Shown piece by piece: positions 6,771 to 61,189 of a stretch of DNA of 61,189 bases. The DNA comes from Patescibacteria group bacterium (GTDB lineage Bacteria; Patescibacteriota; Patescibacteriia; Patescibacteriales; UBA12465), in assembly GCA_028681575.1 (NCBI GenBank), contig JAQUHX010000003.1, positions 1 through 61,189 on the forward strand, given 5' to 3'. Within the stretch, counting starts at the first letter, position 1, and each line of letters starts with the position of its first letter. The notes beneath the pieces are model-generated. The model searched no databases. It was not told the DNA's origin and was given only the letters and a program-made list of their open reading frames with translations. A program made the position numbers and the translations under genes.

Positions 6771-7469
6771 CTAATACCACCATTTTAACCCAATTAAATA
6801 AATTATCCAAATATGTAAAGGATAAAATAGATAAAAAAAGTACTTTAGTGCCGGAGCACTCTTACCGCGTTGTCCGTTATAAAGCCACAAAAGAGGCAGA
6901 GAAAAAATCATTAACCACTGATAGTTGGCGTTTCCGGAAAAACCAATTTTCCAAAAAATAATTTGCCAGGCAAGCGCCCAAAAAACAAAAACTGGAAACA
7001 ACACTGACCAGCGCTGACGGGTAAAATAAAAAATCAAAGTGACCCCGAGAAGCATCCAGGACCCCTCAACAAAAAAGAATAAACAAACAATTATTGGTAA
7101 AGAAAAAAGAGCTAATAGATTAAAATTATTTTCTTTTAAAGCTTCAAAAGCAATCATTAAAGCAACTGACAGCGCCAAGGGCCAGAAAATATTAATATTA
7201 ATCAAAACTGGTGCCGGAAGAAAATGATTAAGCAAGCCGCTACCAAGAGACATTATAATTCCCCCAGAAATTAAGCGCCCCAAATAACGCCAGCGATTAC
7301 GAGTATGCCAAAAACCTTCCACAAGTAAAAAGAAAAAAATTGAAGCGACGATTCTTCCTAAATAACTAAACCAATCAGGGGTGCCCTCCCAAAAATAGTG
7401 AAAATGATCTAAGACCATCAGGCTAGCCGCCAAAAATTTTAATTGCGTGGCATTGAGAAATTTCTTCAT
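6771..7469 (-). CDS. TraX-family integral membrane protein (putative acyltransferase)
   Basis: 232 aa, polytopic. The N-terminus LNATQLKFLAASLMVLDHFHYFW resembles the TraX family signature (LK..A...M.iDH). The stop codon directly abuts the tRNA-Gly(CCC) 5' end. Confidence 0.6.
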   Translation of the reverse strand: MKKFLNATQLKFLAASLMVLDHFHYFWEGTPDWFSYLGRIVASIFFFLLVEGFWHTRNRWRYLGRLISGGIIMSLGSGLLNHFLPAPVLININIFWPLALSVALMIAFEALKENNFNLLALFSLPIIVCLFFFVEGSWMLLGVTLIFYFTRQRWSVLFPVFVFWALAWQIIFWKIGFSGNANYQWLMIFSLPLLWLYNGQRGKSAPALKYFFYLFYPLHIWIIYLIGLKWWY

Positions 7470-13996: not shown

Positions 13997-14428
13997 TCAC
14001 CAAAATGGCCCCTTGCAGTCAACCGCACCATCGGTAGTCGTAAGACAAACAATAACATTTAAAAGATAATAAACTATCCCCCAAGAAGTTAAAATTATTA
14101 CTAAACCAATAGCTAGGTTTTTAATATTCCCTAAAGATTTACTTGTTTTTTCCTTGTTTCCACCCGAAGTCATATATTGAACCCCTGAAACAATTAAGAG
14201 AATCACGGCAATCAAAGCCAAAAAAGAAAGGATAGTGTTAATTAATTCCAAAATTGTCCGCCTCGCATCCTGAGGCTTGTTAGTGCTATAAGCTTGACCG
14301 CCAACTTCTTGAAGCAAGGTTTGCTGATTAAGTAAAGTATTATTGGCTACTGCCGGAGAACTAAAAAACAAAACGCCAAGCATAACTCCCGCTAAACCAA
14401 AAATGCCAATTTTTTTCGCAAGTCTCAT
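13997..14428 (-). CDS. VirB2/TrbC-like (T4SS-pilin-like) small membrane protein, dispersed paralog
   Basis: The start is moved to the ATG at 14428-14426 (MRLAKKIGIFGLAG...PAVA signal peptide), which removes the overlap with the divergent gene. The C-terminal half LALIAVILLIVSGVQYMTSGGNKEK...LAIGLVIILTSWGIVYYL has the same TM-loop-TM pattern as the 50-52.6 kb array. Confidence 0.65.
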   Translation of the reverse strand: MRLAKKIGIFGLAGVMLGVLFFSSPAVANNTLLNQQTLLQEVGGQAYSTNKPQDARRTILELINTILSFLALIAVILLIVSGVQYMTSGGNKEKTSKSLGNIKNLAIGLVIILTSWGIVYYLLNVIVCLTTTDGAVDCKGPFW

Positions 14429-14471: not shown

Positions 14472-15923
14472 ATGACTGCTGACAAACCCTTAAAGCTTGC
14501 TACCCGTGTTTTTTACAATACCGCCATCCAAATTGGCGGTAAAATTGTTTCTACCCTTATCGGCTTATTGTCGATTGCCTTAATAACCCGCTATTTAGGG
14601 TTAGCTGGCTTTGGTTCATACGCGACTATTATTGCCTTTGTTTCTTTTTTTGCCGCTCTAGCTGACCTGGGTATGACCCTGGTAACCAGTCAAATGATTA
14701 GTCGCCCCCAAGCCGACCAGTCACGAATTTTAAACGGGCTCTTTGGTTTACGTCTACTGTCAATTGTAGCAATTTTAGCATTAGCTCCAATTGTCGGCTC
14801 ATTTTTTCCTTACAGCCCAGCTGTAAAAATTGGTATTTTAATTAGTACTCTTTCCTATATATTTCCCGCTCTTAATCAGATTATCATCGGCTTACTCCAA
14901 AAACATCTGCGCCTGGATCGAGCGGCGATTGCCGAAGTTTTTGGCAGACTTCTATTAATTGCTGGTATTTTCTGGGTTATCAAAACAGATGCCGGTTTAA
15001 ACGGGCTACTCTGGATTCATGTCATATCTGCTGCTGGTAGCTTTTTTCTAGCTTATTTTTTAGCTAGCGCTATTCATTGGCTCAGACCCCGTTTTGATTT
15101 TATTTTCTGGCGCAAAATACTCCTACAAAGCTGGCCCTTAGCTTTAACAACTCTCTTAAATCTAATTTATTTAAAAAGCGATACAATCGCTTTGTCTCTT
15201 AGTCGCCCCTCCGAAGAAGTTGGCCTGTATGCTGCTGCTGACCGTGCTGTTGAAATTTTAAGCACCTTACCTTTTCTTTTTGCCGGGATCATTCTCCCAA
15301 TTTTAACTCGTGCTTGGGCGGAAAATAAAAAAGATTATTTTAAAAAAATTCTTCAAAAATCTTTAGATTTAATGAGTATTATTGCAATTCCTCTAATTAT
15401 TGGCACTTTTATCCTAGGGGATTCAGTTATAGTTTTACTGGCTGGAGAGGAATATATGGCTAGCGGCTTAATTTTAAAAATTTTAATTCTTGCCGTGGCT
15501 GGAGTTTTTATTGGTTGTATTTTTTCTCATGCCATCTTAGCTATTGATAAGCAGAAAAAAATTATTAGCGCCTATGCCTTTATTGCCTTGAGTTCTTTAA
15601 TTTTCTATGTTTTACTAATTCCGCACTGGTCTTATCTGGCAGCCGCCCTAATTACCGTCTACAGTGAATGGGGGCTCGCCTACCTGGCTATCCGCTTGAT
15701 AAAAAAATATACAAACTTCAAAATAAATTTTCTAGTCTTGAAAAAATCGCTCTTCGCTTCTTTAATTATGGGGCTGGCTATTTTTCTCCTCCCTAAACAT
15801 CTAAGCTGGCACTGGTTAAGTCTCTTGGTTATTATTATTGGGGCAAGTCTGATTTATTTTATTAGTCTTTATCTTTTAAAAGGGCTCACAAAAGCCGATT
15901 TACAAATTCTTAAACGCCACTGA
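14472..15923 (+). CDS. MOP-superfamily flippase (Wzx/polysaccharide-biosynthesis type)
   Basis: 483 aa, about 14 TM helices. The N-terminal pattern (NTAIQIGGKIVSTLIGLLSIALITRYLGLAGFGSY) is typical of oligosaccharide/lipid-linked flippases. An extended -10 (TGTTATAAT, 14434-14442) lies upstream. Confidence 0.65.
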   Translation: MTADKPLKLATRVFYNTAIQIGGKIVSTLIGLLSIALITRYLGLAGFGSYATIIAFVSFFAALADLGMTLVTSQMISRPQADQSRILNGLFGLRLLSIVAILALAPIVGSFFPYSPAVKIGILISTLSYIFPALNQIIIGLLQKHLRLDRAAIAEVFGRLLLIAGIFWVIKTDAGLNGLLWIHVISAAGSFFLAYFLASAIHWLRPRFDFIFWRKILLQSWPLALTTLLNLIYLKSDTIALSLSRPSEEVGLYAAADRAVEILSTLPFLFAGIILPILTRAWAENKKDYFKKILQKSLDLMSIIAIPLIIGTFILGDSVIVLLAGEEYMASGLILKILILAVAGVFIGCIFSHAILAIDKQKKIISAYAFIALSSLIFYVLLIPHWSYLAAALITVYSEWGLAYLAIRLIKKYTNFKINFLVLKKSLFASLIMGLAIFLLPKHLSWHWLSLLVIIIGASLIYFISLYLLKGLTKADLQILKRH

Positions 15924-25487: not shown

Positions 25488-26618
25488 ATGAAAAAACTAT
25501 TTTGGGGCCTACTCCTGGTTTTACCCCTACTTTTAAGCGCCTCCGCGGCACAAGCTTTTTCTTTTGAAACTAAGGATAACTATCGATTACCAAAAGAAGA
25601 GGTTCACGACGGAAACCTTTACGTTGCAGCCGGAATAATAGCTATTGATGGTCAGATAAATGGCGATTTAATTGCTGCAGCGCAAAACTTAAGTGTTGAC
25701 GGAAAAATTGAAGGTGATTTAATTGCTTTTTCTCAAAACTTAATTATCAATGGCGAAGTTACTGGTAGTGTCCGCATTTTTTCCCAAAGCATAAATATTA
25801 ATGGTTTAGTTGGTCGTAACATCAATGCCTTTACCTCAACAATTAGCCTTGGATCTGAATCTGAAGTCGGCTCTGATTTATTAATTTTTGGCGCTTCAGG
25901 AAATTTTAACGGTTTAGTTAACGATAGTTTATATGGCGGTTTAGCACAAGCGAATATTAATGGTAAAGTTGGCCATGATGTTTCTCTAAACCTAGAAAGT
26001 GATTATAATGGCCGTAATTTATTTATTGGCTCCGAGGCTGTTATTGGTGGTGATTTAAAGTATAGTGCTAAAAGTGAAGCGGAAATTCAAAACCCCGAAG
26101 CCGTCTCTGGAAATATTAACTACCAACCACAAATAAAAAAACCTGAAAACTGGAAAAACAAAGCAACGAATCGCTTCTTTCAGTTATCTTCCCTTATCTT
26201 AATTGGCATTATTTTACTAACCCTTAAAAAGAAAAGTTTTGCCAAAACCGCTAAAACAATGGCCGAAAAGCCTTGGCAGACACCGCTAGTTGGTTTGATT
26301 TTTCTTTTAGTAACGCCTATTATTACTCTCCTCCTACTTATCACTGTTATCGGAATACCACTTGCCTTAATAATTATTGCTCTTTATTTGGTTTTATTAA
26401 TAATTTCTATTATTTATTCAGCTTATTACATCGGCCTTCTTTTGGGTAATGGTTTAAATAAAAAACCGATTAACCCTTTTCTTGCTTTAATTTTGGGCCT
26501 AATTATCTTTATCATTTTAATGTCTATTCCTTGGCTAGGCGGACTATCAACCCTTGTCTTTATCCTATTTGGTCTCGGCGCCTCGGTCTTAGAAATTAAA
26601 AATAACTTTGACTTTTAA
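25488..26618 (+). CDS. exported beta-helix-repeat (bactofilin/polymer-forming-like repeats) protein with C-terminal multi-TM anchor
   Basis: 376 aa. Signal peptide ...SASAAQA. Tandem ~19-aa repeats follow (IDGQINGDLIAAAQNLSVDGKIEGDLIAFSQNLIINGEVTGSVRIFSQSININGLVGRNINAF), then about 4 TM helices. Confidence 0.5.
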   Translation: MKKLFWGLLLVLPLLLSASAAQAFSFETKDNYRLPKEEVHDGNLYVAAGIIAIDGQINGDLIAAAQNLSVDGKIEGDLIAFSQNLIINGEVTGSVRIFSQSININGLVGRNINAFTSTISLGSESEVGSDLLIFGASGNFNGLVNDSLYGGLAQANINGKVGHDVSLNLESDYNGRNLFIGSEAVIGGDLKYSAKSEAEIQNPEAVSGNINYQPQIKKPENWKNKATNRFFQLSSLILIGIILLTLKKKSFAKTAKTMAEKPWQTPLVGLIFLLVTPIITLLLLITVIGIPLALIIIALYLVLLIISIIYSAYYIGLLLGNGLNKKPINPFLALILGLIIFIILMSIPWLGGLSTLVFILFGLGASVLEIKNNFDF

Positions 26619-34348: not shown

Positions 34349-35479
34349 CTACTGTTTAATTGGCATTACAACATAACAATAAGATGTATCTGTATTACTT
34401 GTTAATAAACATGGAGTATTTGAACTATTTATTCCAATACTAGCCTCATCGCCATTTAAATTATTTAAACCATCAACTAAATAACGGTAGTTAATTGCTA
34501 TTTCGTTATCAGGACCAGAAACATCAGCTGCAACCTCTACTCGACTCTCACCAGTTTGACCAGAAGAAGCAGAAATAATAATTTTTCCACTTAAAAGTTC
34601 TAAATTAATATCATTAATACCAATTTTAGAAAAAATAGCCGTTGCTTTTACCGCTCTTAACAATTCAGAACGCTTAACCTTTACTATTGTTTGATTTTTA
34701 TCGGGAATAATTTGCTTATAGTCAGGGTACTGGCCATTAATTAATCTAGATACTAATTCAACAGAATCAACAGAAAACAATATTTGATTATCCGAAACGG
34801 CAATTTTTACCCCCTCATTAGAACTAGCTTCTAAATTTTCATTAGAGTAGCCACTTAAGATTCTTAATAATTCTTGAATTGTTCGAGCGGGAACAATTAT
34901 TCTTTGTTTAGTAAAATCGCCTTTTGCTTTAATTAATAATTTTTTTTCTGCTAAACGATAACTATCAGTGGCCGCTAAAGTTAATTCATTATCTTCAAAA
35001 TTAAATAAAACACCTGCTAATTCAACTCGATTATCATTAACTGAGGCAGAAAAAATGACACTATTTAGAGCTTGACGAAGATCTTCAGCCTGACAATAAT
35101 AATAATTATTTTGATCAACATTAGGAATTAAAGGAAATTCTTGAGCTGATTCGCCTCTAATTTTTGTTTGATAATTTAAACATTCTATTTGCAAAGCTTC
35201 GTCATTATCAGTTGTTAATAATATATTTTCTTCAGGTAATAAATTAATATATTCAGTAATAATTTTTGAATCGACAGTAAATTCCCCCTCTTCTTCAATT
35301 TTTCCACGCAATTGATAAATAATTCCAATCTCTAAATTAGTACTAACTAATTCAATTGCTCCTTTTTTTGCTTTAATTAAAATATTACTAAGAATTGGTA
35401 AATTTATATTTTTACCTGTTCCATGACTAGTAATCGAGAGAGCTTTTTTTAAATTTTCTTGTGTGCTTATTAAACGCAT
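34349..35479 (-). CDS. dnaN: DNA polymerase III beta sliding clamp
   Basis: 376 aa, three-domain clamp pattern (LPILSNILI, TDSYRLA, LINGQYPDY), immediately downstream of dnaA. Confidence 0.93.
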   Translation of the reverse strand: MRLISTQENLKKALSITSHGTGKNINLPILSNILIKAKKGAIELVSTNLEIGIIYQLRGKIEEEGEFTVDSKIITEYINLLPEENILLTTDNDEALQIECLNYQTKIRGESAQEFPLIPNVDQNNYYYCQAEDLRQALNSVIFSASVNDNRVELAGVLFNFEDNELTLAATDSYRLAEKKLLIKAKGDFTKQRIIVPARTIQELLRILSGYSNENLEASSNEGVKIAVSDNQILFSVDSVELVSRLINGQYPDYKQIIPDKNQTIVKVKRSELLRAVKATAIFSKIGINDINLELLSGKIIISASSGQTGESRVEVAADVSGPDNEIAINYRYLVDGLNNLNGDEASIGINSSNTPCLLTSNTDTSYCYVVMPIKQ

Positions 35480-35719
35480 ATTATATTAGTTATATAATAT
35501 ATATAAATAATAACAATAATAAGGGTGGGAATAATTTTAACAATTTTAATAAAGAGGCTGAATTAATTAAGGTTATTATAATTTTTACTTGTTAATTAGT
35601 TATGGGTAATAGGTTTATTAAAGATTAATAAAAAGGTGATAACTTTTAAATTTTTAATAGTTATACCCAAATAAATTAATTAATAACAAACTATCACCTT
35701 TAAAAGAACAGTTTATCCA
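35480..35719. other. candidate oriC half: AT-rich dnaA-dnaN spacer (possible DNA-unwinding element)
   Basis: 240-bp non-coding spacer. It contains an almost pure A/T run at 35478-35522 (atattatattagttatataatatatataaataataacaataataa) and several degenerate TTATNCACA-like words. Confidence 0.45.
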
Positions 35720-35721
35720 CT
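35713..35721 (+). promoter_or_regulatory. DnaA-box-like 9-mer (8/9 match)
   Basis: ttatccact versus consensus TTATCCACA. It overlaps the dnaA stop codon. Confidence 0.4.
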
Positions 35722-37093
35722 AGACAGAAAACAATTGTTTAATTGAATTAAGTTCTTGTTTTATCTTTTCATTACCTAAATCAACAACTTCGTGGCGAAT
35801 CTTATTATAAGAATGAATTGCAGTAGTATGATCACGACCACCCATTTCTTGAGCAATTGTTGGGTAGGAGGATTCTATTTCTTCACGCATTAAATAGATT
35901 GCGATTTGACGCGGCCAAACAAATTCTTTTTTTCGGCTTGGACCTAAAAGGTCTTTTAAATTAAGATCATAAAAACGACAAACAGCATCAATAATTTCTT
36001 TATTAGATAAAGATTTTGTTTTAGTACTACTAACAAAATCAGACATTATCTCTTTTACGCTCTTTTCAGTGATTGGGGTTCCTTTAAGCTCATGAACAGC
36101 AATAATTTTATTTAGTAAACCTTCTAACTCGCGAATATTATTTTGAACACTTTCAGCCATCATAGTTAAAATTTCCGGACTTAAAGGAAAACCCTTTTCT
36201 TCGGCGCGTCTTTCTAAGATTGCAATTTTAGTTTCAGTGTCAGGTTTACCAACATCAGCAACCATCCCTGATTCAAAACGAGAGATAAGTCTTGCTTCAA
36301 TTGCTGGTAATGATTTAGGAGGGCGATCAGAGGTTAAAACCACCTGTTTGTCGGCTTGCTGTAATTCATTAAAGGTATGAAAAAATTCTTGTTGAGTACC
36401 ATCTTTACCGCCCATAAACTGAACATCATCAACTAAAAGTAAATCAACATTTCTATATAAATTTTTAAAGTCTTTACCTTTTCCAGAGTGAACCGCCTGA
36501 ATGTAGTCATTTGTGAATTGTTCAGAGGTTGTATATAAGACTCGCTGATTGCCTTTAGTGGCAACCTCATTTCCAATTGCTTGTAAAAGGTGTGTTTTTC
36601 CTAAACCAACTCCACCATAAATAAATAAAGGGTTGTAAGCCTTGCCTAAATTATTAACTACTGCCTGGCAAGCGGCGTAAGCTAACTCATTATTTTTACC
36701 AACAATAAACTTTTCAAAAATATATTTAGGATTAAGCCCTGACCGAGGTCGGTCATTACTGTTTTTATTTGTTGGTAAGGGGGAAAAGTTGGGTTGAGTT
36801 TTAATATATTCAACGTTTGGTTTGGAAAAATTTTTTTCTGCAACTGGTTTTAACTCCACCTGGTAAGAAACATCAACCTTTTCTTTAAGAACATTTTCTA
36901 AGGCAGAAACTATACTGTGGTGGTATTTTTCCTCTAACCATTTTTTAATAAAGGCGTTTGGCACACCAACAACAACTTTGGTTCCCTCTAGGGAGCTAAT
37001 AAAAGTGTTTTTAAACCAGGTAATAAAATTAGCTCGAGATAGTCCAATCTCGACTTCACCTAAAACAGATTGCCAAATTTGTTCGTATGACAT
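35720..37093 (-). CDS. dnaA: chromosomal replication initiator DnaA
   Basis: 457 aa. AAA+ Walker A GGVGLGKTHLL, Walker B LLVDDVQF, sensor motifs and the C-terminal DNA-binding helix DHTTAIHSYNKI. Confidence 0.97.
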   Translation of the reverse strand: MSYEQIWQSVLGEVEIGLSRANFITWFKNTFISSLEGTKVVVGVPNAFIKKWLEEKYHHSIVSALENVLKEKVDVSYQVELKPVAEKNFSKPNVEYIKTQPNFSPLPTNKNSNDRPRSGLNPKYIFEKFIVGKNNELAYAACQAVVNNLGKAYNPLFIYGGVGLGKTHLLQAIGNEVATKGNQRVLYTTSEQFTNDYIQAVHSGKGKDFKNLYRNVDLLLVDDVQFMGGKDGTQQEFFHTFNELQQADKQVVLTSDRPPKSLPAIEARLISRFESGMVADVGKPDTETKIAILERRAEEKGFPLSPEILTMMAESVQNNIRELEGLLNKIIAVHELKGTPITEKSVKEIMSDFVSSTKTKSLSNKEIIDAVCRFYDLNLKDLLGPSRKKEFVWPRQIAIYLMREEIESSYPTIAQEMGGRDHTTAIHSYNKIRHEVVDLGNEKIKQELNSIKQLFSV

Positions 37094-37166
37094 AAAGGGG
37101 TAAGTAAATATAAATTCATTATATTTAATAAAAAGCTTTCTAACAAGCTAAAAAATGTTTACAAGT

Positions 37167-37186
37167 TGTGGGTAAGTTGTGAATAA
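37167..37186. promoter_or_regulatory. two tandem DnaA-box-like 9-mers in the dnaA/rpmH divergent spacer
   Basis: tgtgggtaa (37167-37175) and tgtgaataa (37178-37186). Each matches TGTGGATAA at 8/9 positions, and they are 2 nt apart. Confidence 0.5.
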
Positions 37187-37213
37187 TAATTAAAAAAGGG
37201 ATAAGTGTCAGCA

Positions 37214-37242
37214 TTGACCATTAAAAATAAAAATGATAGAGT
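37214..37242 (+). promoter_or_regulatory. sigma70-like promoter for rpmH-rnpA-yidC
   Basis: TTGACC (37214-37219), 17-nt spacer, TAGAGT (37237-37242). Confidence 0.45.
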
Positions 37243-37278
37243 AAATTCGACTTAAAATTGAAAGAATATACATTTTTT

Positions 37279-37416
37279 ATGCCGAAAAGAACCTATCAAC
37301 CGAATAAGAAAAGAGCGAGCACAAAACATGGTTTTATGAGTAGAATGGAAACCAAGGATGGGCGTGCTGTTTTAAAGCGTCGGCGAGATAAAGGGAGAGA
37401 ATCCCTGACTAAATAA
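37279..37416 (+). CDS. rpmH: 50S ribosomal protein L34 (45 aa, not in the ORF track)
   Basis: Own translation: [45 protein letters not shown], the canonical L34 sequence and its canonical position before rnpA. Confidence 0.95.
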
Positions 37417-37434
37417 TGGTAGTCAAAAATAGGG

Positions 37435-37773
37435 ATGTTGCCCGCAAAAAATCGACTAACAAAAGACCGGGAATTTAATTCCATTTTTAAAGAGGGGCGC
37501 TCTTTTTATAGCGGTTCTTTGGGTTTAAAATATTTAAAAAATAACTTAGGGTTTAATCGTTTTGGCATTTTAGTTGGCGTTAAAGTAAGTAAATTAGCGG
37601 TTAAGCGCAATCTTTATAAGAGGCGTTTGCGGGCAATTATTAACCAAGAAAATAGACATTTAAAACAAGGCTTTGATTTAGTAATTATTACTAAATCTGA
37701 AATTAAAAACTCGTCTTACTCTAATTTAATTGAACACCTAAATAATTTATTTAAAAAAAGCGGCTTAAAATAG
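37435..37773 (+). CDS. rnpA: ribonuclease P protein component
   Basis: 112 aa, basic. LPAKNRLTKDREF... and the KLAVKRNLYKRRLR (RNR-like) motif. It follows rpmH. Confidence 0.9.
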   Translation: MLPAKNRLTKDREFNSIFKEGRSFYSGSLGLKYLKNNLGFNRFGILVGVKVSKLAVKRNLYKRRLRAIINQENRHLKQGFDLVIITKSEIKNSSYSNLIEHLNNLFKKSGLK

Positions 37774-37776
37774 AGA

Positions 37777-38550
37777 TTGAGTTTAAAAACAATTTTAAAA
37801 TATATGTTAGGTAATTTCTTCCAACTTTTCTTTTATCAACCAGTTCTTAATTTGTTAGTTTTTTTATACGGACAGATTGGCGATTTAGGGGTGGCAATTA
37901 TTTTATTAACCCTTATAATCAAATTAATTTTTTGGCCTTTATCTCAAAAATCAACTAAATCCCAATTAGCAATGCAAGGGATTCAAGCTGAACTAAATGA
38001 TTTAAAAAAGAAATATGCTGACAACAAAGAAGCTTTGGGGCGAGCAACAATGGATTTATATAAAAAACACAAGATAAACCCCCTTTCTTCTTGTTTGCCC
38101 CTTTTAATCCAACTCCCTTTTATTTATGCAATTTTTAGAACCCTTCGAGTTGGCTTAAGTGAGGATTTGGGCTTAGTCTATTCCTTTATTAGCCCAGTTA
38201 CCACGATTAGCACTATTTCTTTTGGGGTGGATTTGGGTCAGCGAGTAATCGTTTTAGCAGTGTTGGCTGGTTTGGCTCAGTTTATTCAGAGTAAATTAAT
38301 GTTAAAGAAGCAAGTTAAGACCACCCCACCAACTGAAGGTTCGGGGGTGGAGAATATGACAACAATAATAGGTAAACAATCAACTTATTTATTTCCAATT
38401 ATGACCGTCTTTTTTGGAATGTCTTTACCTGGAGGGTTAACTCTTTATTGGTTTACTTTCACCCTTCTAACCCTGCTTCAACAAGTTTTAATTCAAAAAA
38501 AACAGGACCGAGGTCCTATTAATGGAGTAGTTGTTTCTGGGGAAAAATAA
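37777..38550 (+). CDS. yidC: membrane protein insertase YidC (short, Gram-positive/CPR type)
   Basis: 257 aa. LGVAIILLTLIIKLIFWPL, MQGIQAELNDLKKKY and INPLSSCLPLLIQLPF are typical YidC/Oxa1 segments. The track start is TTG at 37777; an alternative ATG is at 37804. Confidence 0.9.
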   Translation: MSLKTILKYMLGNFFQLFFYQPVLNLLVFLYGQIGDLGVAIILLTLIIKLIFWPLSQKSTKSQLAMQGIQAELNDLKKKYADNKEALGRATMDLYKKHKINPLSSCLPLLIQLPFIYAIFRTLRVGLSEDLGLVYSFISPVTTISTISFGVDLGQRVIVLAVLAGLAQFIQSKLMLKKQVKTTPPTEGSGVENMTTIIGKQSTYLFPIMTVFFGMSLPGGLTLYWFTFTLLTLLQQVLIQKKQDRGPINGVVVSGEK

Positions 38551-39357: not shown

Positions 39358-39768
39358 CTATTCTTCTTCTGGCAGCACTTCTTTTTTATCTGTAGAATTA
39401 TTTTTTTTGTTGCGAGCTGCTCCGTGACTACTTAAACGGCCATTAATTAAGGCCCCTCTAGAAACAGAAAGTTCTTGAAAATTAACATCACCATTTATTT
39501 TGGCGGTGCTACCTAAGGCAAGATATTGGCTAATTTTAATGGTTCCATTAATTTGGCCATTAATAGTGGCGTTTTCTGCTTCAATGTTGGCAACGACTTG
39601 AGCTTTTTCGCCAATATAAACATCAGCATCGGTTTTAAGACTACCTTCTAAACTGCCTTCAATAATAATGTTTCCGGTTCCATGAAAATCTCCTTTAACG
39701 GTAACCGAAGAGCCAATAATTGTTTCGGCGTCTTTAAACTTTTCTGGTTTCATTTCTTTATTAAACAT
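39358..39768 (-). CDS. bactofilin (polymer-forming cytoskeletal protein)
   Basis: 136 aa. TIIGSSVTVKGDFHGTGNIIIEGSLEGSL...ATINGQINGTI...INGDVNFQELSVSRGALINGRL is the bactofilin beta-helix repeat pattern, with disordered termini. Confidence 0.85.
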   Translation of the reverse strand: MFNKEMKPEKFKDAETIIGSSVTVKGDFHGTGNIIIEGSLEGSLKTDADVYIGEKAQVVANIEAENATINGQINGTIKISQYLALGSTAKINGDVNFQELSVSRGALINGRLSSHGAARNKKNNSTDKKEVLPEEE

Positions 39769-48509: not shown

Positions 48510-49190
48510 TTAAATTTCTTCTAGAACTTCAATTTTTGCAGTTTTTACACCAAATTTAAGGGCGTCTTTTTTTTCAACCATCCAAACATCAACTCGGTTT
48601 GAAAAACGCTTATTCATTCGATCGCGAACAACAAATACTTGGTCACCAAATAGTTCAGGAATGCGTACTTTAGTGCCTAATTTTAAGAAATTGGCGCCAA
48701 TAGTGTCCTCAATTCCGTGCTCACAAACATTAAAGCCGTTGGCGGTAATACAGGGAGAGCTATCTGTCTGGGCCGCCTCTGAGTTATAGGCAGTAATTAT
48801 ATGTTCACTCGTTTTGATAACACGGTATTTAATTTCTTCCTCTGGTTGGTTGTTATTCTGATCAGAAATCACCTGAGGATTGGCTAGCCGTAAAGCCTTC
48901 CCTTCCTTAACCGGTTCTGGGCTCAATCCGGGGTTGGCAATTAGATGATTAATAATATTTTGGGCTTCTGAGTCTAATTCAGAGCTTTTTAGAGGTAGGC
49001 TTAGACTGATTAGATCATCTTGAGTTTCGGTTTTATCTTTAAGGGGGTCAGTGATGCTAGCATTAGCTAAGGCTGGAGTGAAGAAGAAGAGAAATTCAAA
49101 GAGACAAACAATTAATAAATAAAGCAAAAAGCTTTGCCGTCTACTAAGAGGAATAAGATCCTCTCCGATTTTTTGGAGTTTAGTTTTCAT
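48510..49190 (-). CDS. 3D-domain (MltA-like double-psi beta-barrel) cell-wall-active protein, membrane-anchored
   Basis: 226 aa. N-terminal TM. C-terminal ITAYNSEAAQTDSSPCITANGFNV....IGANFLKLGTKVRIPELFGDQVFVVRDRMNKRFSNRVDVWM...ALKFG follows the 3D-domain pattern (vTaY....qTD..p..ta.G......iAa....pfGT.v.i.......y.v.DrM..r....iDi.....eA..fG). Confidence 0.75.
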   Translation of the reverse strand: MKTKLQKIGEDLIPLSRRQSFLLYLLIVCLFEFLFFFTPALANASITDPLKDKTETQDDLISLSLPLKSSELDSEAQNIINHLIANPGLSPEPVKEGKALRLANPQVISDQNNNQPEEEIKYRVIKTSEHIITAYNSEAAQTDSSPCITANGFNVCEHGIEDTIGANFLKLGTKVRIPELFGDQVFVVRDRMNKRFSNRVDVWMVEKKDALKFGVKTAKIEVLEEI

Positions 49191-49362: not shown

Positions 49363-49971
49363 ATGAAAAAATTATTATTAATTTTTGTTTTTTCGGGGCT
49401 AGTTTCTTTACTAGCAGCCCAAACAAATTCTGCTTTTGCCCAGCAAAAAATAATTGCTCTAGAAATGGAAGTAGAACAGTTAAAAAATGAACTCTATTTA
49501 ATAGAGACGTCAAAAACTAAACAACGCTCCCCAGAGAAGATGGGCTGTTGGGAGTTTAAGCGTCGCACTCGAGCTCAACACTTTAAAGTCAATGAAGCTT
49601 TGGCTGAGCAGGTAATTCGTCAGGCAGCATCAGAGAAAATATTTTATGATTCTGATGATCCGCTCTTGAATCAGGATATACCAGGATATGGTTTACCAGG
49701 GCTATTAATCAATAATAAGCGAGGCTTGGGAGAAAATGTTACCTTTAGGATTACTAGGCGCGGCTTTAAGGAGTTTGCTCCGCAAATTTATAGCCTTGTT
49801 CCCCAGGAAAGACTCTGGATAAAATTGCCGGCCGGTGAGTATCTGGTAGAAATTTCAATGGGAGGGAGATTTATTGGCTATGTTGTTTGTCCGGTTGACC
49901 CCGCTAATATTAAGCACGCGGATGGTCAGAAATGTTATTTTTGGGCCGAAAAAACCCTTTCAGATTTTTAA
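49363..49971 (+). CDS. hypothetical secreted protein
   Basis: 202 aa. Signal peptide MKKLLLIFVFSGLVSLLAAQTNSAFA, a short coiled-coil, and a C-terminal domain with three Cys. I recognise no motif. Confidence 0.6.
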   Translation: MKKLLLIFVFSGLVSLLAAQTNSAFAQQKIIALEMEVEQLKNELYLIETSKTKQRSPEKMGCWEFKRRTRAQHFKVNEALAEQVIRQAASEKIFYDSDDPLLNQDIPGYGLPGLLINNKRGLGENVTFRITRRGFKEFAPQIYSLVPQERLWIKLPAGEYLVEISMGGRFIGYVVCPVDPANIKHADGQKCYFWAEKTLSDF

Positions 49972-49989
49972 TTTTGAAAAATAAAAAAA

Positions 49990-50020
49990 GGACTATCATC
50001 AGGATAGTCCTTTTCTTTTT
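49990..50020. terminator. bidirectional intrinsic terminator
   Basis: ggactatc / atcag / gatagtcc forms an 8-bp stem, with A7 before it and a T-rich run after it. It lies between convergent ORF 49363-49971 and the first pilin-like gene. Confidence 0.75.
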
Positions 50021-50036
50021 AGATAATAGAATTAGT

Positions 50037-50450
50037 TTAGCCGCCAGCAACGCCACCACCACCACCACCAAAAGGTAGAATTCTAAATAAAGTGCTAGTG
50101 ATTATATAGGCTGCCAAAACAACAACCAGACCAATAACTGCATTGGTTAAAGTTTTTTTAGCTTTTTTGACTTCATCATCATTTCCTTGAGCGGTCATCC
50201 ATTTAAAACCAGAAACAATAGTGAGAATTAGAAAAATTACTCCTAAAAATCCCAGTAAAACTTGGATAATTGTTGCGATAATAAAGGCTAAGCTGGTTGT
50301 TTGACTTATTCCAGCCGCATCGGCAAAAGCTTTTGTTTGAGAATCTATTTTGTCGCTGTTAAAATCTGATGTTGTCGCCAAGGAGGCCGAGACAATGTTT
50401 GGTAAAATAAGAAAAAGGCCAATAATAATGGAATAAAAAATGTTTTTCAT
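50037..50450 (-). CDS. VirB2/TrbC-like (T4SS-pilin-like) small membrane protein, array copy 6 of 6 (last transcribed)
   Basis: 137 aa. Signal peptide ...PNIVSA|S, variable region, TM, SGFKWMTAQGNDDEVKKAKK loop, TM, then a poly-Gly tail GGGGGGVAGG. Its start overlaps the upstream copy's stop by 4 nt (ATGA). Confidence 0.7.
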   Translation of the reverse strand: MKNIFYSIIIGLFLILPNIVSASLATTSDFNSDKIDSQTKAFADAAGISQTTSLAFIIATIIQVLLGFLGVIFLILTIVSGFKWMTAQGNDDEVKKAKKTLTNAVIGLVVVLAAYIITSTLFRILPFGGGGGGVAGG

Positions 50451-50854
50451 AGTTTTGATAAAAAAGACACTTGAATAAACATCCAGATTGCGTAAGAAGA
50501 GATAATTATTAAAAGACCAGTCACCGCCTTGGTGATAGACCCTTGAGCCTCTTTAACTTTTGCATCATTCCCACCAGCAGTCATCCACTTAATACCAGCA
50601 AGAATTGTTAAAACTAAGAAGATAACTCCTAAAATCCCCAGCACAACATTGACTACCAGGCCGATGATAGTAGCTGCTGATGTTTCGGTGGCAGTTTCGG
50701 AAAAAGGCCCATAATTAGTAGCCGCGTTGTTTAGACGATCAAGGGGGGAGGCGTTTTTTTTGATAATATCATTGCCGGCAAAAACTAAGCCGGGAATTAT
50801 TAGAACAACGGTTAAGAAGAGAACGCTAAGCCAAGAAGGTAACTTTTTTTTCAT
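50447..50854 (-). CDS. VirB2/TrbC-like small membrane protein, array copy 5
   Basis: 135 aa. Signal peptide ...GLVFA|G, variable region, TM, AGIKWMTAGGNDAKVKEAQ loop, TM. Confidence 0.7.
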   Translation of the reverse strand: MKKKLPSWLSVLFLTVVLIIPGLVFAGNDIIKKNASPLDRLNNAATNYGPFSETATETSAATIIGLVVNVVLGILGVIFLVLTILAGIKWMTAGGNDAKVKEAQGSITKAVTGLLIIISSYAIWMFIQVSFLSKL

Positions 50855-50863
50855 AAGTATTTT

Positions 50864-51280
50864 TTAGGTAAAAATATTAAAAATAAAGAAGGCAATGGCA
50901 TAACTGGCCAAGATAATTAAGAGTCCTAAAATTGAGCTAATTAATCCCCCTCGAGCCTCTTTAACTTGATTTTCGTTGCCTTGGGCGGTCATCCATTTGA
51001 AGCCGTTAAAAATTAACAAGGCAAGAGCAATTACTCCCAATAAAGAGAAGGCAATATTGATTACTAAACCAACATAGTATTCGGGGCTTTGTGCTTCTTG
51101 ATTATAACCAATGTCTTTAGCAAAGTTGCCTAATTTGCCTTCTGAGGAAAAAGCACTTTTTATCCCTTTTTGGGGGACGGCGGGGCTGGTACTTGCATTA
51201 ACTGGTGCAAATAGTAAAAAACTACTTAAAATAAAGGACAGACTGATAAAAAAAGATGAAGTTTTTGAATAATTAAGCAT
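50864..51280 (-). CDS. VirB2/TrbC-like small membrane protein, array copy 4
   Basis: 138 aa. Signal peptide ...APVNA|S, variable region, TM, NGFKWMTAQGNENQVKEAR loop, TM. Confidence 0.7.
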   Translation of the reverse strand: MLNYSKTSSFFISLSFILSSFLLFAPVNASTSPAVPQKGIKSAFSSEGKLGNFAKDIGYNQEAQSPEYYVGLVINIAFSLLGVIALALLIFNGFKWMTAQGNENQVKEARGGLISSILGLLIILASYAIAFFIFNIFT

Positions 51281-51286
51281 AAAGAA

Positions 51287-51703
51287 TTATTCTTCGACTG
51301 TCGTTGGTGTTTCGCTTTCCACTTTTTGAGATGAATCTAAGGCGTTAAGAACAAAATAACTAACAGCGTAGGAGGCAAAAATAATAATTAAACCAATAAT
51401 TGAATTAATGAGAATTTTTTTAGCTTCACCAATTTTAGATTCATTGCCTTGGGCGGTCATCCATTTAAAACCAGAATAAATAATCAAAGCAAAGAAAATT
51501 AAACCTAAAATTGAAAAGACAACAGTTAGAACTTGCCCGACATAAGACTCAATAAAAGTGTCAGTGTTTTGGTTTGTTTCGTAGCCTAACTTTTCACCAG
51601 TTTCTTTAAGGCCACTTTCATTTACAAAGTTATAAGAAGCTTGGACGCTAAAGCCAAAAAATAAAGAAATAGCAATAAGAAAAGCGACTGCAAAACTTCT
51701 CAT
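51287..51703 (-). CDS. VirB2/TrbC-like small membrane protein, array copy 3
   Basis: 138 aa. Signal peptide ...FSVQA|S, variable region, TM, SGFKWMTAQGNESKIGEAKK loop, TM, acidic tail. Confidence 0.7.
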   Translation of the reverse strand: MRSFAVAFLIAISLFFGFSVQASYNFVNESGLKETGEKLGYETNQNTDTFIESYVGQVLTVVFSILGLIFFALIIYSGFKWMTAQGNESKIGEAKKILINSIIGLIIIFASYAVSYFVLNALDSSQKVESETPTTVEE

Positions 51704-51705
51704 AA

Positions 51706-52128
51706 TTAACTGGTTAATTGATTGCCAATGAAGGCAGTTAAAGAATAGGCTGCGGTAATGATAATTAAACCAATAATAGCGTTCATTAGTAAATCTTTGG
51801 CTTTTTTGATTTGGGCATCATTTCCTTGGGCAGTCATCCAAATGAATCCCGCGTAAATAGTAATGGCTAAAAAGATAACTCCCAAAAAGGAAAGAATTAA
51901 AGAAATGATGTCGGTAATTCGGTTTGTTAAAATATCTTGAGGATTTTTATCAACTTGAGATTTGTAAGCGTCAATACCGTCTTTCGAGTTACTTCCTTTT
52001 ACTGCTTCGTTTAGGCCGTCTAATGTTTTTTGGGTCCCCTCGTTAGCGCTTGCTAAAGAGGCCGCCGGTAAATTAAGGCAGCAGAAAGAAACGAAAAAAA
52101 GAATCAATAAAAATCTAAAAGTTTTCAT
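51706..52128 (-). CDS. VirB2/TrbC-like small membrane protein, array copy 2
   Basis: 140 aa. Signal peptide ...ASLASA|N, variable region, TM, AGFIWMTAQGNDAQIKKAKD loop, TM. Confidence 0.7.
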   Translation of the reverse strand: MKTFRFLLILFFVSFCCLNLPAASLASANEGTQKTLDGLNEAVKGSNSKDGIDAYKSQVDKNPQDILTNRITDIISLILSFLGVIFLAITIYAGFIWMTAQGNDAQIKKAKDLLMNAIIGLIIITAAYSLTAFIGNQLTS

Positions 52129-52232
52129 AAAAAACTAATTACAGCTGCAAGTCGCAATTATTTCCGGCTCGCAGCGGTAACCCCCATTAAAACAATGAGG
52201 GAACCATTTTTCAAGAATCGATTTCTGAAAAT

Positions 52233-52619
52233 TTATTGGGTAACTTTAACTGCATTTTCCAGGATAAAGTAAGCAATTCCCCAAGCAGAGAGGATAATAA
52301 TTAAACCAATAACACCGGAAGTCATTAATTTTCTTGCTTCGCCAACTTTGTCATCACTGCCACCAGCAGTCATCCACTTAAAACCAGCAATTAAAATAAT
52401 GCCCACGGCAATAATGCCTAAGAAAATCATGGCGGTGTTAATTAGTCTGGTTACCGTCTCAATCGGGCTTCGTCTGCCTATATCTAGAGTAGCATCAATT
52501 TCAGTAACACCCAGCTTGTCTAGGTTTAAAGTGCCGCTGCCAGCAAGCGTTGCCGCAGGAACAGCCACTAAAGAAAGCAATAAAGCTAAAGATAACAAGT
52601 GTTTCGTTATTTTTTTCAT
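52233..52619 (-). CDS. VirB2/TrbC-like small membrane protein, array copy 1 (first transcribed)
   Basis: 128 aa. Signal peptide ...AATLA|G, variable region, TM, AGFKWMTAGGSDDKVGEARK loop, TM. It is separated from copy 2 by a structured 104-nt spacer. Confidence 0.7.
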   Translation of the reverse strand: MKKITKHLLSLALLLSLVAVPAATLAGSGTLNLDKLGVTEIDATLDIGRRSPIETVTRLINTAMIFLGIIAVGIILIAGFKWMTAGGSDDKVGEARKLMTSGVIGLIIILSAWGIAYFILENAVKVTQ

Positions 52620-52693
52620 AATTCACCACCTTTCTAGTTTTATATATTATGCTAAGATTCTAGCATAAATAAGATTTCAAGACAATAAAAAAT

Positions 52694-54069: not shown

Positions 54070-54732
54070 TTATTCCACTAAAATTTGACGCTCAATAACG
54101 GCTTCACTGCTATATTTTTTCTTAGCACTGATAGTAATATTGTTTAGGCCCTTTTTTAAGTTAATCAGAAGGGAAAAATCTCCATTTTTATTACTCAACA
54201 CTTCTTCGCCGTTAATTTTTATTTCTGCCTCAGCTTCGCTTTGACCATTAATTTCCCAAACAGTGCTAGTGGTTTTTAAATTTCCGGCCGGTTCCCAGAC
54301 GTTTAAATCGGGAGCGGAGACAATCATTTTTAAATAAAAACCTAAATAAGCCAAGCAAGCTAAAAGAATAAGGAGGAGAATAGTGGTTCGGACTAATTTA
54401 GGAAAATTAGCAAACTCTTTTTTGGCAACAATTTTTTGAAAAAAGGGATTAATTTCAGGTGAAATATTTTTTTCTTGTTCGGCAAGCCACTTATTGATTT
54501 CAGAATTAGGAAAGCCAAGCCAGCGAGCGTATTTTTTTGCATAGTTTCTTCCATATAATCCGGCTGGAAGGCGTTCAAAATGATCATCTTCTAAAGAGAG
54601 TAGATATTCTAAACGAATTCCGAGACGTTTAGCAGCCAGGGCGGGGTCAATTTGTTTAAATTCGCGAGCAGATTTTAAACGAGCGCCTAAACTTTTCTCA
54701 CCATTTAGAGGTTTTTTGGTAAACTCAGCCAT
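54070..54732 (-). CDS. RodZ-like HTH membrane protein
   Basis: 220 aa. N-terminal HTH LGARLKSAREFKQIDPALAAKRLGIRLEYLLSLEDDHFERLP (RodZ/HTH_25-like), one TM, and a small extracytoplasmic beta domain. Confidence 0.6.
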   Translation of the reverse strand: MAEFTKKPLNGEKSLGARLKSAREFKQIDPALAAKRLGIRLEYLLSLEDDHFERLPAGLYGRNYAKKYARWLGFPNSEINKWLAEQEKNISPEINPFFQKIVAKKEFANFPKLVRTTILLLILLACLAYLGFYLKMIVSAPDLNVWEPAGNLKTTSTVWEINGQSEAEAEIKINGEEVLSNKNGDFSLLINLKKGLNNITISAKKKYSSEAVIERQILVE

Positions 54733-54738
54733 GTTTGC

Positions 54739-55149
54739 TTATTTTAAGCTAGGAACTTTGCCACTACTAGCATCCCAATTTATTCCTAAGCCGCCAAACA
54801 AGGTTTGAATAATTAGAACGCTAGAAAAAACAAGTACTAAACCAACAACGGCCGCTCCCAAGATTTCTTTGCCTTTTTTTACTTTTTGCTCAGAACCAGC
54901 TGAGGTTAAAAAGACTATCCCGCCATAAACAAAAGCAGCTAAAGAAAGGGTTCCTACAAAACCTAAAATAAAATACATCAAATAAATTAGGTAATCTCGA
55001 ACATCATCCAGGGTGTACCCCCCGGTTTGATAGGCGGCGCTCTTTGTATCAACAAGGCTACTTGCTTGTACAATTTTCGGAGCGGCAGAAATAATCAAAC
55101 CAGCTCCTAATAAAATAAGCACAGCTAAAAAAAATCTTTTACGCTTCAT
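54739..55149 (-). CDS. VirB2/TrbC-like small membrane protein, dispersed divergent paralog
   Basis: The start is taken at the ATG at 55149-55147 (MKRKRFFLAVLILLGAG...), which removes the overlap with the upstream SBP gene. The C-half reads FVGTLSLAAFVYGGIVFLTSAGSEQKVKKGKEILGAAVVGLVLVFSSVLII, the same TM-loop-TM layout. Confidence 0.6.
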   Translation of the reverse strand: MKRKRFFLAVLILLGAGLIISAAPKIVQASSLVDTKSAAYQTGGYTLDDVRDYLIYLMYFILGFVGTLSLAAFVYGGIVFLTSAGSEQKVKKGKEILGAAVVGLVLVFSSVLIIQTLFGGLGINWDASSGKVPSLK

Positions 55150-55153
55150 ATGG

Positions 55154-56527
55154 TTAGCGAATTGTTTGCTGGACCTTAATGGCACCATCATTTAAAACAT
55201 CTAGTATTTTAAAGTTAGGGTTTAGGGCGTTATTAATCATCTCTCCAATTGCCCCTTCAGCGTCTTGAGCGCTGAGACCTCGATACCAACTCTTGGCGCT
55301 TAACACTTGTTCAGCAAAAGGGCCAAGGTATTCATCATTTTTTTGGTCATTAATACTTGCTTTGAGAGCAGTTGGTTTAGCGGTTTTTTGTAAGTAAATA
55401 TCAGCTTTTTCTTTTTTGGTTAAAAATTGAATAAAATCCCAGGCAGCATCGCTGTAGTTACTTTTCTTAGAAACGGTTAAGAGCCAATAATTAGCCATGT
55501 TTATTTGAAGCTGATTTCCTTCAATTTGAGGAAGTTTAGCAATTCCAAAATTTAATTTTGGCGCCTGAGAACGAATTTGTTCGAGGTTAAAAGAATAGCC
55601 AAGCATCATTGCTAAATTGCCGCTTGCAAAGGCGTCTAAAGCGTTTTTTTGCTCATCGTTCCAGCAGTAAACTTCTTTATTGGGGTTAGAAAAATCAGTG
55701 TAAAATCGTAAGGCTTCTAAACCGGGGTTGTAGCCGCTAGTAATGTAAGCAGGGACTTGGTTAAAGGTAACGCGACCATTTTCATCAATTATCGTAGCAC
55801 CATTTTGCATCATTAAAACTGTTAAAATGTCGCTAGCACGATTAATGTTGTTTGCCGTTCCGAGAGCGATTCCTGACTGGACTAAGCCTTTTTTTGGATC
55901 CTGTTTTGTCATTTTCTTAACGGCCTGTTGGAATTCTCGGTTCCAATAGCGAGGCGGTTCTGTGATTCCGGCGCTATTGAGTAAATCGCGATTATAATAG
56001 AGGGCCAGAGTATCAATAGATAAAGGCAATCCGTAAATTAAACCATCTTCTAAAATAGCGTCAGAGGCGACAACATCGGCAAAATTATTTTTTAATTCCC
56101 GGGTGCTCAGACTTCTAGTAGCTCGTAATTCTGGTACTAATTCTTTTTTGAATCCAGAGCTTTCGACGAAGTAGGCAACAGAAGTGTATTCTGGGAGGGG
56201 GTTAATCTTTGATTGATATTTTTTAACCCAGGTATTATGAATTGCAAAAATGTCTGGCCCCCGATCTTCTGCCCAGGCGTTAAGGAGTTGATTTTCGTAT
56301 TCTTCGTAACGAAATTTTTTATACTCAATTGTAATATTTGGGTGTAGAGTTTGATACTCGTTAATAATTTCTGAAAAAGCATCTGAATCGTCAAAAGCTT
56401 GCCAAAAAACAAGCTTAATTGGCTGTGAAGCTTTTAAGGTTGCTTCATTAATTTTAGTCTGGCAGCCAAAGCCGGCACCAAGGAAAAAGACTAATAAAGA
56501 AACAAGGAGAAGGGATTTTTTAAACAT
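55154..56527 (-). CDS. ABC-type sugar substrate-binding lipoprotein (family 1 SBP)
   Basis: The start is taken at MFKKSLLLVSLLVFFLGAGFGC (lipobox-like; ATG 56527-56525). The pattern is typical of an extracellular solute-binding family 1 protein (LVFWQAFDD, ...IFAIHNTWV, LALYYNRDLL). No permease or ATPase gene is adjacent. Confidence 0.75.
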   Translation of the reverse strand: MFKKSLLLVSLLVFFLGAGFGCQTKINEATLKASQPIKLVFWQAFDDSDAFSEIINEYQTLHPNITIEYKKFRYEEYENQLLNAWAEDRGPDIFAIHNTWVKKYQSKINPLPEYTSVAYFVESSGFKKELVPELRATRSLSTRELKNNFADVVASDAILEDGLIYGLPLSIDTLALYYNRDLLNSAGITEPPRYWNREFQQAVKKMTKQDPKKGLVQSGIALGTANNINRASDILTVLMMQNGATIIDENGRVTFNQVPAYITSGYNPGLEALRFYTDFSNPNKEVYCWNDEQKNALDAFASGNLAMMLGYSFNLEQIRSQAPKLNFGIAKLPQIEGNQLQINMANYWLLTVSKKSNYSDAAWDFIQFLTKKEKADIYLQKTAKPTALKASINDQKNDEYLGPFAEQVLSAKSWYRGLSAQDAEGAIGEMINNALNPNFKILDVLNDGAIKVQQTIR

Positions 56528-56641
56528 AAAATCAAAATGCGACAAACTGGTCGCTTAAGCATAACTATTATACCAAAAAATACTAAAACAAAAAAGAATT
56601 CTGTCATCTGGGCAGTCTCTAGAAATTATAATCAGTCATTT

Positions 56642-61188: not shown

Positions 61189-61189
61189 C

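Follow-up and report, generated by a model that had tools for sequence, protein, structure and literature searches.

Here, we describe a six-gene operon of pilin-like proteins on contig JAQUHX010000003.1 (assembly GCA_028681575.1) of a Patescibacteria group bacterium, the whole 61,189-nucleotide (nt) stretch being referred to below as the window. The six genes all lie on the minus strand and are numbered along transcription, from pil1 (52619 to 52233) to pil6 (50450 to 50037). They are pil1 (52233-52619, 128 amino acids (aa)), the first gene of the operon, pil2 (51706-52128, 140 aa), pil3 (51287-51703, 138 aa), pil4 (50864-51280, 138 aa), pil5 (50447-50854, 135 aa) and pil6 (50037-50450, 137 aa), the last gene, whose product ends in a glycine-rich C-terminal tail. 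From pil1 to pil6 the spacings are 104, 2, 6, 9 and -4 nt, pil3 thus starting 2 nt past pil2 and the start of pil6 overlapping the stop of pil5 by 4 nt. These sizes, coordinates and spacings confirm those of a preliminary description of the locus, made from the sequence alone. The 74-nt gap between yraN and pil1 holds a promoter-like site on the minus strand (52657-52685; TTGTCT and TAGAAT separated by 17 nt, with a TG extended -10), and a bidirectional intrinsic terminator (49983-50017), a 15-bp stem followed by a T-run, begins 19 nt past the pil6 stop codon.

All six proteins exceed the gathering cut-off of the Pfam family T4SS_pilin (PF18895; 26.6 bits, over the two-helix core), whose name refers to type IV secretion systems (T4SS), with scores of 40.9 (pil1), 35.6 (pil2), 40.8 (pil3), 27.3 (pil4), 37.1 (pil5) and 47.9 bits (pil6). 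Pil4, which barely clears the cut-off, matches a profile built from the six genes at E = 1.3e-51. When this profile was searched against 427 open reading frames (ORFs) of the window, eight members were returned at E <= 4e-13 and the next ORF stood at E = 0.38; six tandem copies are therefore present as first described, while the total for the window is eight. The two additional paralogs, which also pass the PF18895 gathering score, are pil0 (54739-55149, minus strand, 29.5 bits), five genes upstream of the array, and pilN (13997-14428, minus strand, 42.9 bits), a singleton that lies between the adjoining nusA and a polysaccharide flippase gene. The listed ORF of pilN begins at a TTG codon at 14485, Met20 (14428) being the likelier start; its matches are restricted to close orthologs, and the ortholog in the complete genome AP029158.1 is called 'pilin' in NCBI naming. 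The closest homologs of the array proteins are all PF18895 proteins of Parcubacteria/Patescibacteria metagenome-assembled genomes, and neither a tblastn search of pil6 against 72,556 plasmids nor a scan of viral contigs gave a match. With six consecutive PF18895 genes, the locus falls within the published definition of a VirB2-like array (at least two PF18895 or PF04956 genes, in tandem or one gene apart; PMC12102498). The accession PF18895 given in the preliminary description is correct, and the statement made there that the family is expanded in the candidate phyla radiation (CPR)/Patescibacteria is borne out by the tandem arrays found at nearly all of the 80 loci described below.

The shared architecture reported earlier was likewise recovered. 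Every protein contains, by hydropathy, a signal peptide with an AxA-type site followed by two transmembrane (TM) helices, TM1 and TM2, as its three hydrophobic stretches; signal-peptide cleavage is predicted. The segment between signal peptide and TM1 (the N-segment) comprises 30-46 aa with a net charge of 0 to -4, and the loop between TM1 and TM2 carries an invariant G..WMTA.G motif and 3-5 Lys/Arg residues, giving it a net charge of +1 to +2. The positive-inside rule places such a positively charged loop on the cytoplasmic side, with the two termini of the mature protein predicted to lie outside. VirB2 and F-pilin have the same topology, with a cytoplasmic loop and both mature ends outside, and the array proteins correspond to the VirB2/TrbC pattern in their signal peptide, their two TM helices and their short, predictedly cytoplasmic loop. 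AlphaFold2 models the region from residue 62 to residue 138 as a helical hairpin at a predicted confidence (pLDDT) of ~90, while the N-segment is poorly defined. The array copies are 32-40% identical to the first copy, and this similarity is unevenly distributed: the cores of the paralogs are 45% identical and align far above shuffled sequences (z = 17.7), whereas their N-segments have an identity of 0.20 and an alignment z of 0.3 (maximum 1.5).

Matches to pilin families outside Patescibacteria follow the same hairpin. All eight copies match the NCBIfam model NF045849, the Mbov_0395 family of pilin-like conjugal transfer proteins from Mycoplasma integrative and conjugative elements (ICEs), at E = 1e-10 to 6e-4; pilN alone passes the 40-bit equivalog cut-off (40.9), the six array genes reaching 21.7-36.2 bits and pil0 19.5 bits. 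Further, hhalign aligned the family with eight authentic VirB2/TrbC proteins at a probability of 51.9% (E = 1.5e-4) over 60 in-register helix-loop-helix columns, setting GF.WMTA.GN over GISWMFGRAS of VirB2. These eight proteins were taken from plasmids with mating-pair formation type T (MPF-T) by means of a VirB2 query that is 99.2% identical to the annotated gene.

The six genes differ in their signals for expression. Pil1 is the sole array gene with a strong Shine-Dalgarno (SD) sequence (AAAGGTGGTG, region 52620-52640; duplex dG -8.8), pil2 and the genes behind it being without one, and the same asymmetry recurs across 31 six-gene arrays. In these arrays the SD duplex of gene 1 has a median dG of -8.8 kcal/mol and is at or below -6 in 25/31, compared with genes 2-6, whose medians lie between about -1 and +2 and which reach -6 or lower in 6/155 cases (Mann-Whitney p = 2e-14). 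The first spacer is also set apart by its length, with a median of 107 nt and at least 60 nt in 23 of 30 six-gene arrays, the other four spacers having a median of 4 nt and reaching 60 nt in 1/120. Most of the long first spacers (21/23) fold far better than dinucleotide shuffles, with a median z of -5.3.

In the window, the pil1-pil2 spacer (52129-52232) folds into three hairpins with a minimum free energy of -37.8 kcal/mol (z = -4.57), and the corresponding RNA element (52132-52237, minus strand) is conserved in structure. The first of the hairpins is nearly palindromic around the core AATCGATT, an 8-mer present once in the window; 1.26 Mb of related loci contain it 24 times, with first spacers accounting for 13 of these copies. 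In a seed alignment of 14 sequences, 26 base pairs are 95.3% paired compared with 80.0% in column shuffles (0/500 as high) and 41-51% in slid controls, and both sides have changed in 17 pairs, against 4-8 in controls. Among 17 non-seed sequences, all 17 pairs of the third, long hairpin show a compensatory change. A covariance model found 33 sense-strand matches at E < 0.01 in 1.32 Mb. Of these, 28 immediately follow gene 1, 4 follow gene 2 and the remaining one sits at a contig edge; with a single exception, they begin -6 to +14 nt from the stop codon. The pil1-pil2 spacer is the single sense-strand match in the window (97.9 bits), and Rfam holds no family matching the element. General intrinsic termination was considered for the spacer hairpins and set aside, the T-run being absent or displaced in many loci; the element might serve for stabilisation, for processing or as a partial terminator. 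With its own strong ribosome-binding site and the three-hairpin RNA behind it, pil1 is read as the abundant, major subunit, and pil2-pil6, which lack SD sequences and lie 2-9 nt apart or overlap, as low-level, minor or accessory subunits.

The distribution of such arrays was surveyed by scanning species-representative genomes for the motif FKWMTAQ, which yielded 80 loci in a sample biased to relatives of the query. They span Parcu-, Falkow-, Magasanik-, Uhr-, Komeili- and Buchananbacteria and others, and nearly all are tandem arrays of 4-13 genes, most commonly six with a nearby singleton. This six-plus-one layout is also found in the complete 717-kb genome AP029158.1 (Candidatus Parcubacteria bacterium; GCA_037076615.1) and persists in genomes that are only ~47% identical, pil0 being syntenic in all related loci; in syntenic arrays, pil2 orthologs are 74-93% identical. 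When compared with 30 other complete six-gene arrays, pil1 to pil6 found their best match at their own position in 26, 21, 22, 15, 24 and 24 arrays, respectively, where chance would give ~5, and positional conservation is thus best for pil1. Position-matched orthology over 30 arrays implies that the six classes and their order are ancient. Even the N-segments align above shuffles across distant arrays for most classes (mean z 1.8-7.7), although over deep time they diverge faster than the core, with identities of 0.22-0.41 compared with 0.44-0.65.

Among seven syntenic genomes, orthologous N-segments are 66-89% identical and cores 82-90%. The ratio of non-synonymous to synonymous substitution rates (dN/dS; pooled Nei-Gojobori over the same genomes) was 0.24 for the signal peptide, 0.106 for the N-segment, 0.076 for the core and 0.30 for the C-terminal tail, compared with 0.08-0.15 for the flanking housekeeping genes; the ratios are approximate because dS is near 1, while dN itself is low. 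The N-segments, being conserved between orthologs, are paralog-specific yet not hypervariable, and the earlier term 'hypervariable' holds between paralogs of one array but not between orthologs or strains. On these comparisons, the six copies are best described as ancient, individually conserved orthologous classes under purifying selection.

Based on these data, we favour a reading in which the six genes specify the VirB2-like subunits, one major and five minor, of a T4SS-type surface filament, with the gene for its ATPase located elsewhere, an account that we think probable, if only by a little. One operon would supply six ancient, non-redundant VirB2-like classes to a T4SS-derived surface apparatus typical of Patescibacteria. 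The precursors would be exported by Sec and then cut by signal peptidase I, leaving each mature subunit in the membrane as a two-helix hairpin with the WMTA loop in the cytoplasm and the class-specific N-segment outside. Output would be unequal, with pil1 made in bulk and pil2-pil6 at a low level, and a VirB4/TrsD-type machine encoded elsewhere would presumably extract the subunits from the membrane and polymerise them into a filament or conduit. The distinct N-segments would then provide a fixed structural or contact role for each class, not variation.

Several results weigh against the filament reading. In hmmscan, the clear matches of all six proteins to PF18895 are accompanied by none of comparable strength to TrbC (PF04956), which returned only pil1, with an E-value of 0.12 and a score of 13.1 bits (cut-off 27.9), although precomputed PF04956 matches exist on some homologs; a check against the two families, as had been proposed, is positive for the first and gives this sub-threshold match for the second. 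No significant structural match emerged from a Foldseek search of the PDB (best E = 2.4), in which the Aeropyrum conjugation pilus 8dfu ranked 7th (E = 3.6, template-modelling score 0.61 on the target) amid generic helical hairpins, and the matches returned by a sequence profile search of the PDB were only spurious ones, to designed 'Pizza' repeat proteins. We rate homology to authentic VirB2/TrbC pilins as plausible and moderately supported. The word pilus is itself to be read as putative, no filament having been seen for the T4SS_pilin family, and the abundance assigned to pil1 and the low level assigned to pil2-pil6 are inferred from sequence signals, namely SD sequences, spacers and the RNA element. 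The promoter-like site upstream of pil1 is a consensus match, and such sites are no commoner in the region than in shuffles.

The surroundings of the array also count against the filament reading. A Pfam scan that covered nearly every non-nested ORF of at least 90 aa, including all ORFs of at least 450 aa, found no VirB4, VirB6, VirD4, VirB11 or relaxase gene in the window, as the preliminary description had stated, and no VirB3 gene either; the 10 kb that near-identical strains provide past the right edge of the window were likewise free of all these genes. VirB4, TrsD and VirB6 are absent within 50 kb on one side of the array and 18 kb on the other. More broadly, the 10 kb around each of 82 related arrays contain no VirB4-like P-loop protein and no VirB3, TrsD, VirB6 or VirD4 either; the large P-loop genes in these stretches are SMC, ComM, PilB/GspE, DnaA, FtsH, UvrA, FtsK, Der and IF2. 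Nor was VirB4 present in 1.26 Mb of related loci. Within their scanned surroundings, the arrays are thus not encoded together with a VirB4-containing T4SS.

This separation, together with the identity of the neighbouring genes, underlies the best-surviving alternative, namely that arrays linked to a solute-binding protein (SBP) gene and unlinked to VirB4 form a membrane or envelope structure of their own, independent of any T4SS, which we nevertheless consider unlikely. Such a structure could be a hetero-oligomeric channel or anchor that, with an orphan SBP lipoprotein, captures or imports host-derived compounds. An orphan SBP_bac_1 lipoprotein gene is the most recurrent neighbour of the arrays (46/82 loci) and precedes a pilin gene within 120 nt in 45/47 cases, usually by 2-10 nt. 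In the window this gene (55154-56545, minus strand; PF01547, 118 bits) lies immediately upstream of pil0, with 4 nt from its stop codon to the pil0 start, and the N-terminus of its product reads ...LGAGFGC; no ABC permease or ATPase genes stand beside the SBP-pilin pair. The other recurrent neighbours, Lgt, polytopic membrane proteins, GalU, PPDK and PBP1a, include envelope genes (Lgt, the polytopic membrane proteins, GalU and PBP1a). However, PF18895 arrays lie 5-10 genes from TrsD-VirB4 in other CPR genomes (PMC12102498), the array of Candidatus Southlakia epibionticum lies inside an essential T4SS cluster (PMC10633639), and a functional link between an SBP and such proteins is not known. 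Distance from VirB4 alone is, moreover, weak evidence, because, of the 1,948 assemblies containing both genes, 813 have the pilin gene away from virB4 (PMC12102498). A fuller version of this alternative, to which we give the same low credence, sees in the SBP-coupled, VirB4-unlinked arrays a distinct and ancient Patescibacteria module, heteromeric, with one abundant and five rare VirB2-like subunits. In it, the three-hairpin RNA and the asymmetry of the ribosome-binding sites may set the stoichiometry, and the subunits may work with the orphan SBP lipoprotein in host contact or nutrient capture, possibly without a T4SS ATPase.

An even less probable alternative, also suggested in PMC12102498, is that of a diversification array, in which divergent exposed segments would permit antigenic variation or a fit to different host strains, along the lines proposed for Bartonella and Anaplasma; the preliminary description had favoured antigenic, receptor or host-range diversification. 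In its favour, the N-segments of the paralogs are unrelated in sequence and outpace the core over deep time, and the few differences between strains are concentrated in pil1. Compared with the window, four near-identical strains that were sampled independently show 0-5 nt differences per gene, and across an otherwise near-identical 5.7 kb most of the substitutions fall in pil1 (3-5 nt, mostly non-synonymous; strains L103-L105). They include the adjacent N-segment residues D34G and K35D; the changes, too few for testing, may hint at selection on the exposed part of the candidate major subunit. Against diversification stand the conservation of the N-segments between orthologs, at a dN/dS equal to the level of neighbouring housekeeping genes, the near-identity of the four strains, and the gene number, order and class, which stay constant over 30 arrays. 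None of the syntenic loci shows copy-number turnover, a pseudogene or a recombination cassette. The preliminary description had itself named N-segments as conserved as the core in related genomes as the observation that would speak against its proposal, and this is essentially what was found (0.106 compared with 0.076). The diversification reading is therefore largely refuted.

It is very improbable that we are dealing with secreted effectors, or with small membrane proteins of an unrelated, for example holin-like, kind, and that the pilin label is an artefact of a short hydrophobic profile: the TM7x counterparts were first termed 'six putative effector genes', weak sub-threshold matches to holin and other membrane families occur and the fold search matches generic hairpins such as ATP synthase subunit c, but all copies keep two C-terminal TM helices after the signal peptide, which makes them membrane-anchored and not soluble effectors, all eight exceed the curated PF18895 cut-off, pilin families are the only ones matched consistently across copies, and the family is linked to TrsD-VirB4 in other lineages (PMC12102498).

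The operon belongs to the region of the chromosomal origin, with dnaN, dnaA, rnpA and yidC at 34349-38550 and 12.9 kb from dnaA to the start of the array. Further genes of the window include those for tmRNA, smpB, RNase J, H+-PPase, NusA, trigger factor, SMC, PBP1a, Lgt and 11 tRNAs. The array closes a co-directional block in the order SBP_bac_1 lipoprotein, pil0, HTH_25 (RodZ-like) protein, methyltransferase, 128-aa membrane protein, YraN and pil1-pil6. The HTH_25 gene within the block (54070-54732) may hint at a link to cell-shape proteins, and two bactofilin-domain genes are located near the origin (39358-39768, minus strand; 25488-26618, plus strand). Adjoining the array at its other end, 48510-49190 (minus strand) and 49363-49971 (plus strand) encode secreted or membrane proteins whose synteny is kept in all close relatives and for which Pfam and the PDB gave no match; an initial suspicion that the former, a 226-aa ORF, encodes a 3D-domain cell-wall hydrolase was dropped, as neither database supports it.

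In plasmid F, TraX is an N-acetylase acting on mature F-pilin. A TraX-family protein (PF05857, 90.6 bits) is encoded at 6771-7469 (minus strand) between two tRNA-Gly genes; it could be a pilin-modifying enzyme, and could equally be a coincidence, the family being broad. Just past position 61189, beside tRNA-Leu and tRNA-Val genes, the near-identical strains vary (loci L102-L105, 10400-14000), holding a large serine recombinase, an RNase H gene with small ORFs, or nothing, and a phage integrase occupies the same place in a relative (locus L009), so that this site looks like an integration hot spot for mobile elements. Additionally, many array contigs that clearly belong to Patescibacteria by their pilin arrays and Parcubacteria synteny are labelled 'uncultured Gammaproteobacteria bacterium' (e.g. 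L014, L016 and L019), which looks like an artefact of the submitting pipeline.

A T4SS-type apparatus and its pilin series are essential in the single Patescibacterium that has been tested genetically, and their function has been described as completely unknown (PMC11665869). [quoted passage not shown] The fixed classes under purifying selection, the design of high expression for gene 1 only and the RNA element behind gene 1 together allow a testable model of major and minor subunits to replace the idea of variable pilins, and the RNA element and the SBP-pilin coupling offer concrete experimental handles. New in this analysis are the SD sequence restricted to gene 1, the three-hairpin RNA element, the coupling of SBP and pilin genes and the VirB4-free surroundings of 82 arrays. 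A limited search of published work, which cannot prove these features undescribed, found no mention of conserved classes, of the SD asymmetry, of the RNA element or of the SBP coupling.

In its operon design, the locus can be compared with type IV and chaperone-usher pili, where a subunit gene of high expression is likewise followed by an RNA structure and then by accessory genes of low expression; in the chaperone-usher system pap, a hairpin stabilises the transcript of the major subunit. The protein families and assembly machines are unrelated, and the analogy is one of operon design only. Closer in protein sequence are the pilin-like proteins of the Mycoplasma ICE, whose 80-residue model NF045849 matches over the hairpin in all eight copies and which belong to a monoderm system of the MPF-FATA type, the class within which the VirB4 clade of Patescibacteria nests. 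The genes described here differ in being chromosomal, multiplied and set in a housekeeping context, not cargo of an ICE. VirB2/TrbC proteins, such as the VirB2 of the Agrobacterium T-pilus, resemble the array proteins in having a signal peptide, two hydrophobic helices and a short loop that contains a W-M motif (GISWMFGRAS compared with GFKWMTAQGN). VirB2 is, however, a single gene beside virB1, virB3 and virB4, whereas a six-gene set is found here, its mature N-segments are longer (30-46 aa), and Patescibacteria are thought to be monoderm (PMC12102498).

The nearest counterparts are found within Patescibacteria. In Ca. Southlakia epibionticum ML1, a pilin series that forms part of an essential T4SS cluster is essential in its own right (Wang et al. 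2023, PMC10633639), and the number of VirB2-like pilins in this organism is given as six in a review (PMC12857230); TM7x has six such genes as well. As far as descriptions can be compared, Southlakia, TM7x and the window are alike in having six tandem, structurally alike and sequence-divergent VirB2-like proteins near the replication origin, and the Southlakia array was detected by the same Pfam profiles, PF04956 and PF18895 (PMC12102498). They differ in setting, the Southlakia array lying inside its T4SS cluster (SEML1_0006-0019), whereas here no T4SS gene occurs in 50 kb on one side and 18 kb on the other and the flanks consist of SBP, RodZ-like, methyltransferase, YraN and Lgt genes. Since tandem VirB2-like arrays and the essential six of Southlakia are already published, the array of the window is not new in kind and represents an ordinary member of a documented class, with an essential six-pilin counterpart in Southlakia (PMC10633639, PMC12857230).

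This class was documented by Quinonero-Coronel et al. (2025), whose search of 3,035 Patescibacteria genomes for PF04956 and PF18895 yielded 441 VirB2-like arrays of 2-11 genes in 383 assemblies, with a mean within-array identity of 25% and a maximum of 54% (PMC12102498). VirB4 was present in 2,417 of the 3,035 assemblies, a pilin gene was near virB4 in 1,135 of the 1,948 assemblies with both, and, according to Table S3 of that survey, several CPR genomes from groundwater carry TrsD-VirB4 at a distance of 5-10 genes from an array of 6-8 PF18895 genes (PMC12102498). AP029158.1 and six contig prefixes of the related loci are absent from its supplement, and the survey makes no mention of an SD asymmetry, an RNA element after gene 1 or a coupling to SBP genes (PMC12102498). 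The arrays of the survey and that of the window are alike in Pfam family, tandem layout and low within-array identity, and they part in interpretation: there, multiple VirB2 paralogs were suggested to provide versatility toward different host strains (PMC12102498), whereas the classes found here are fixed and conserved.

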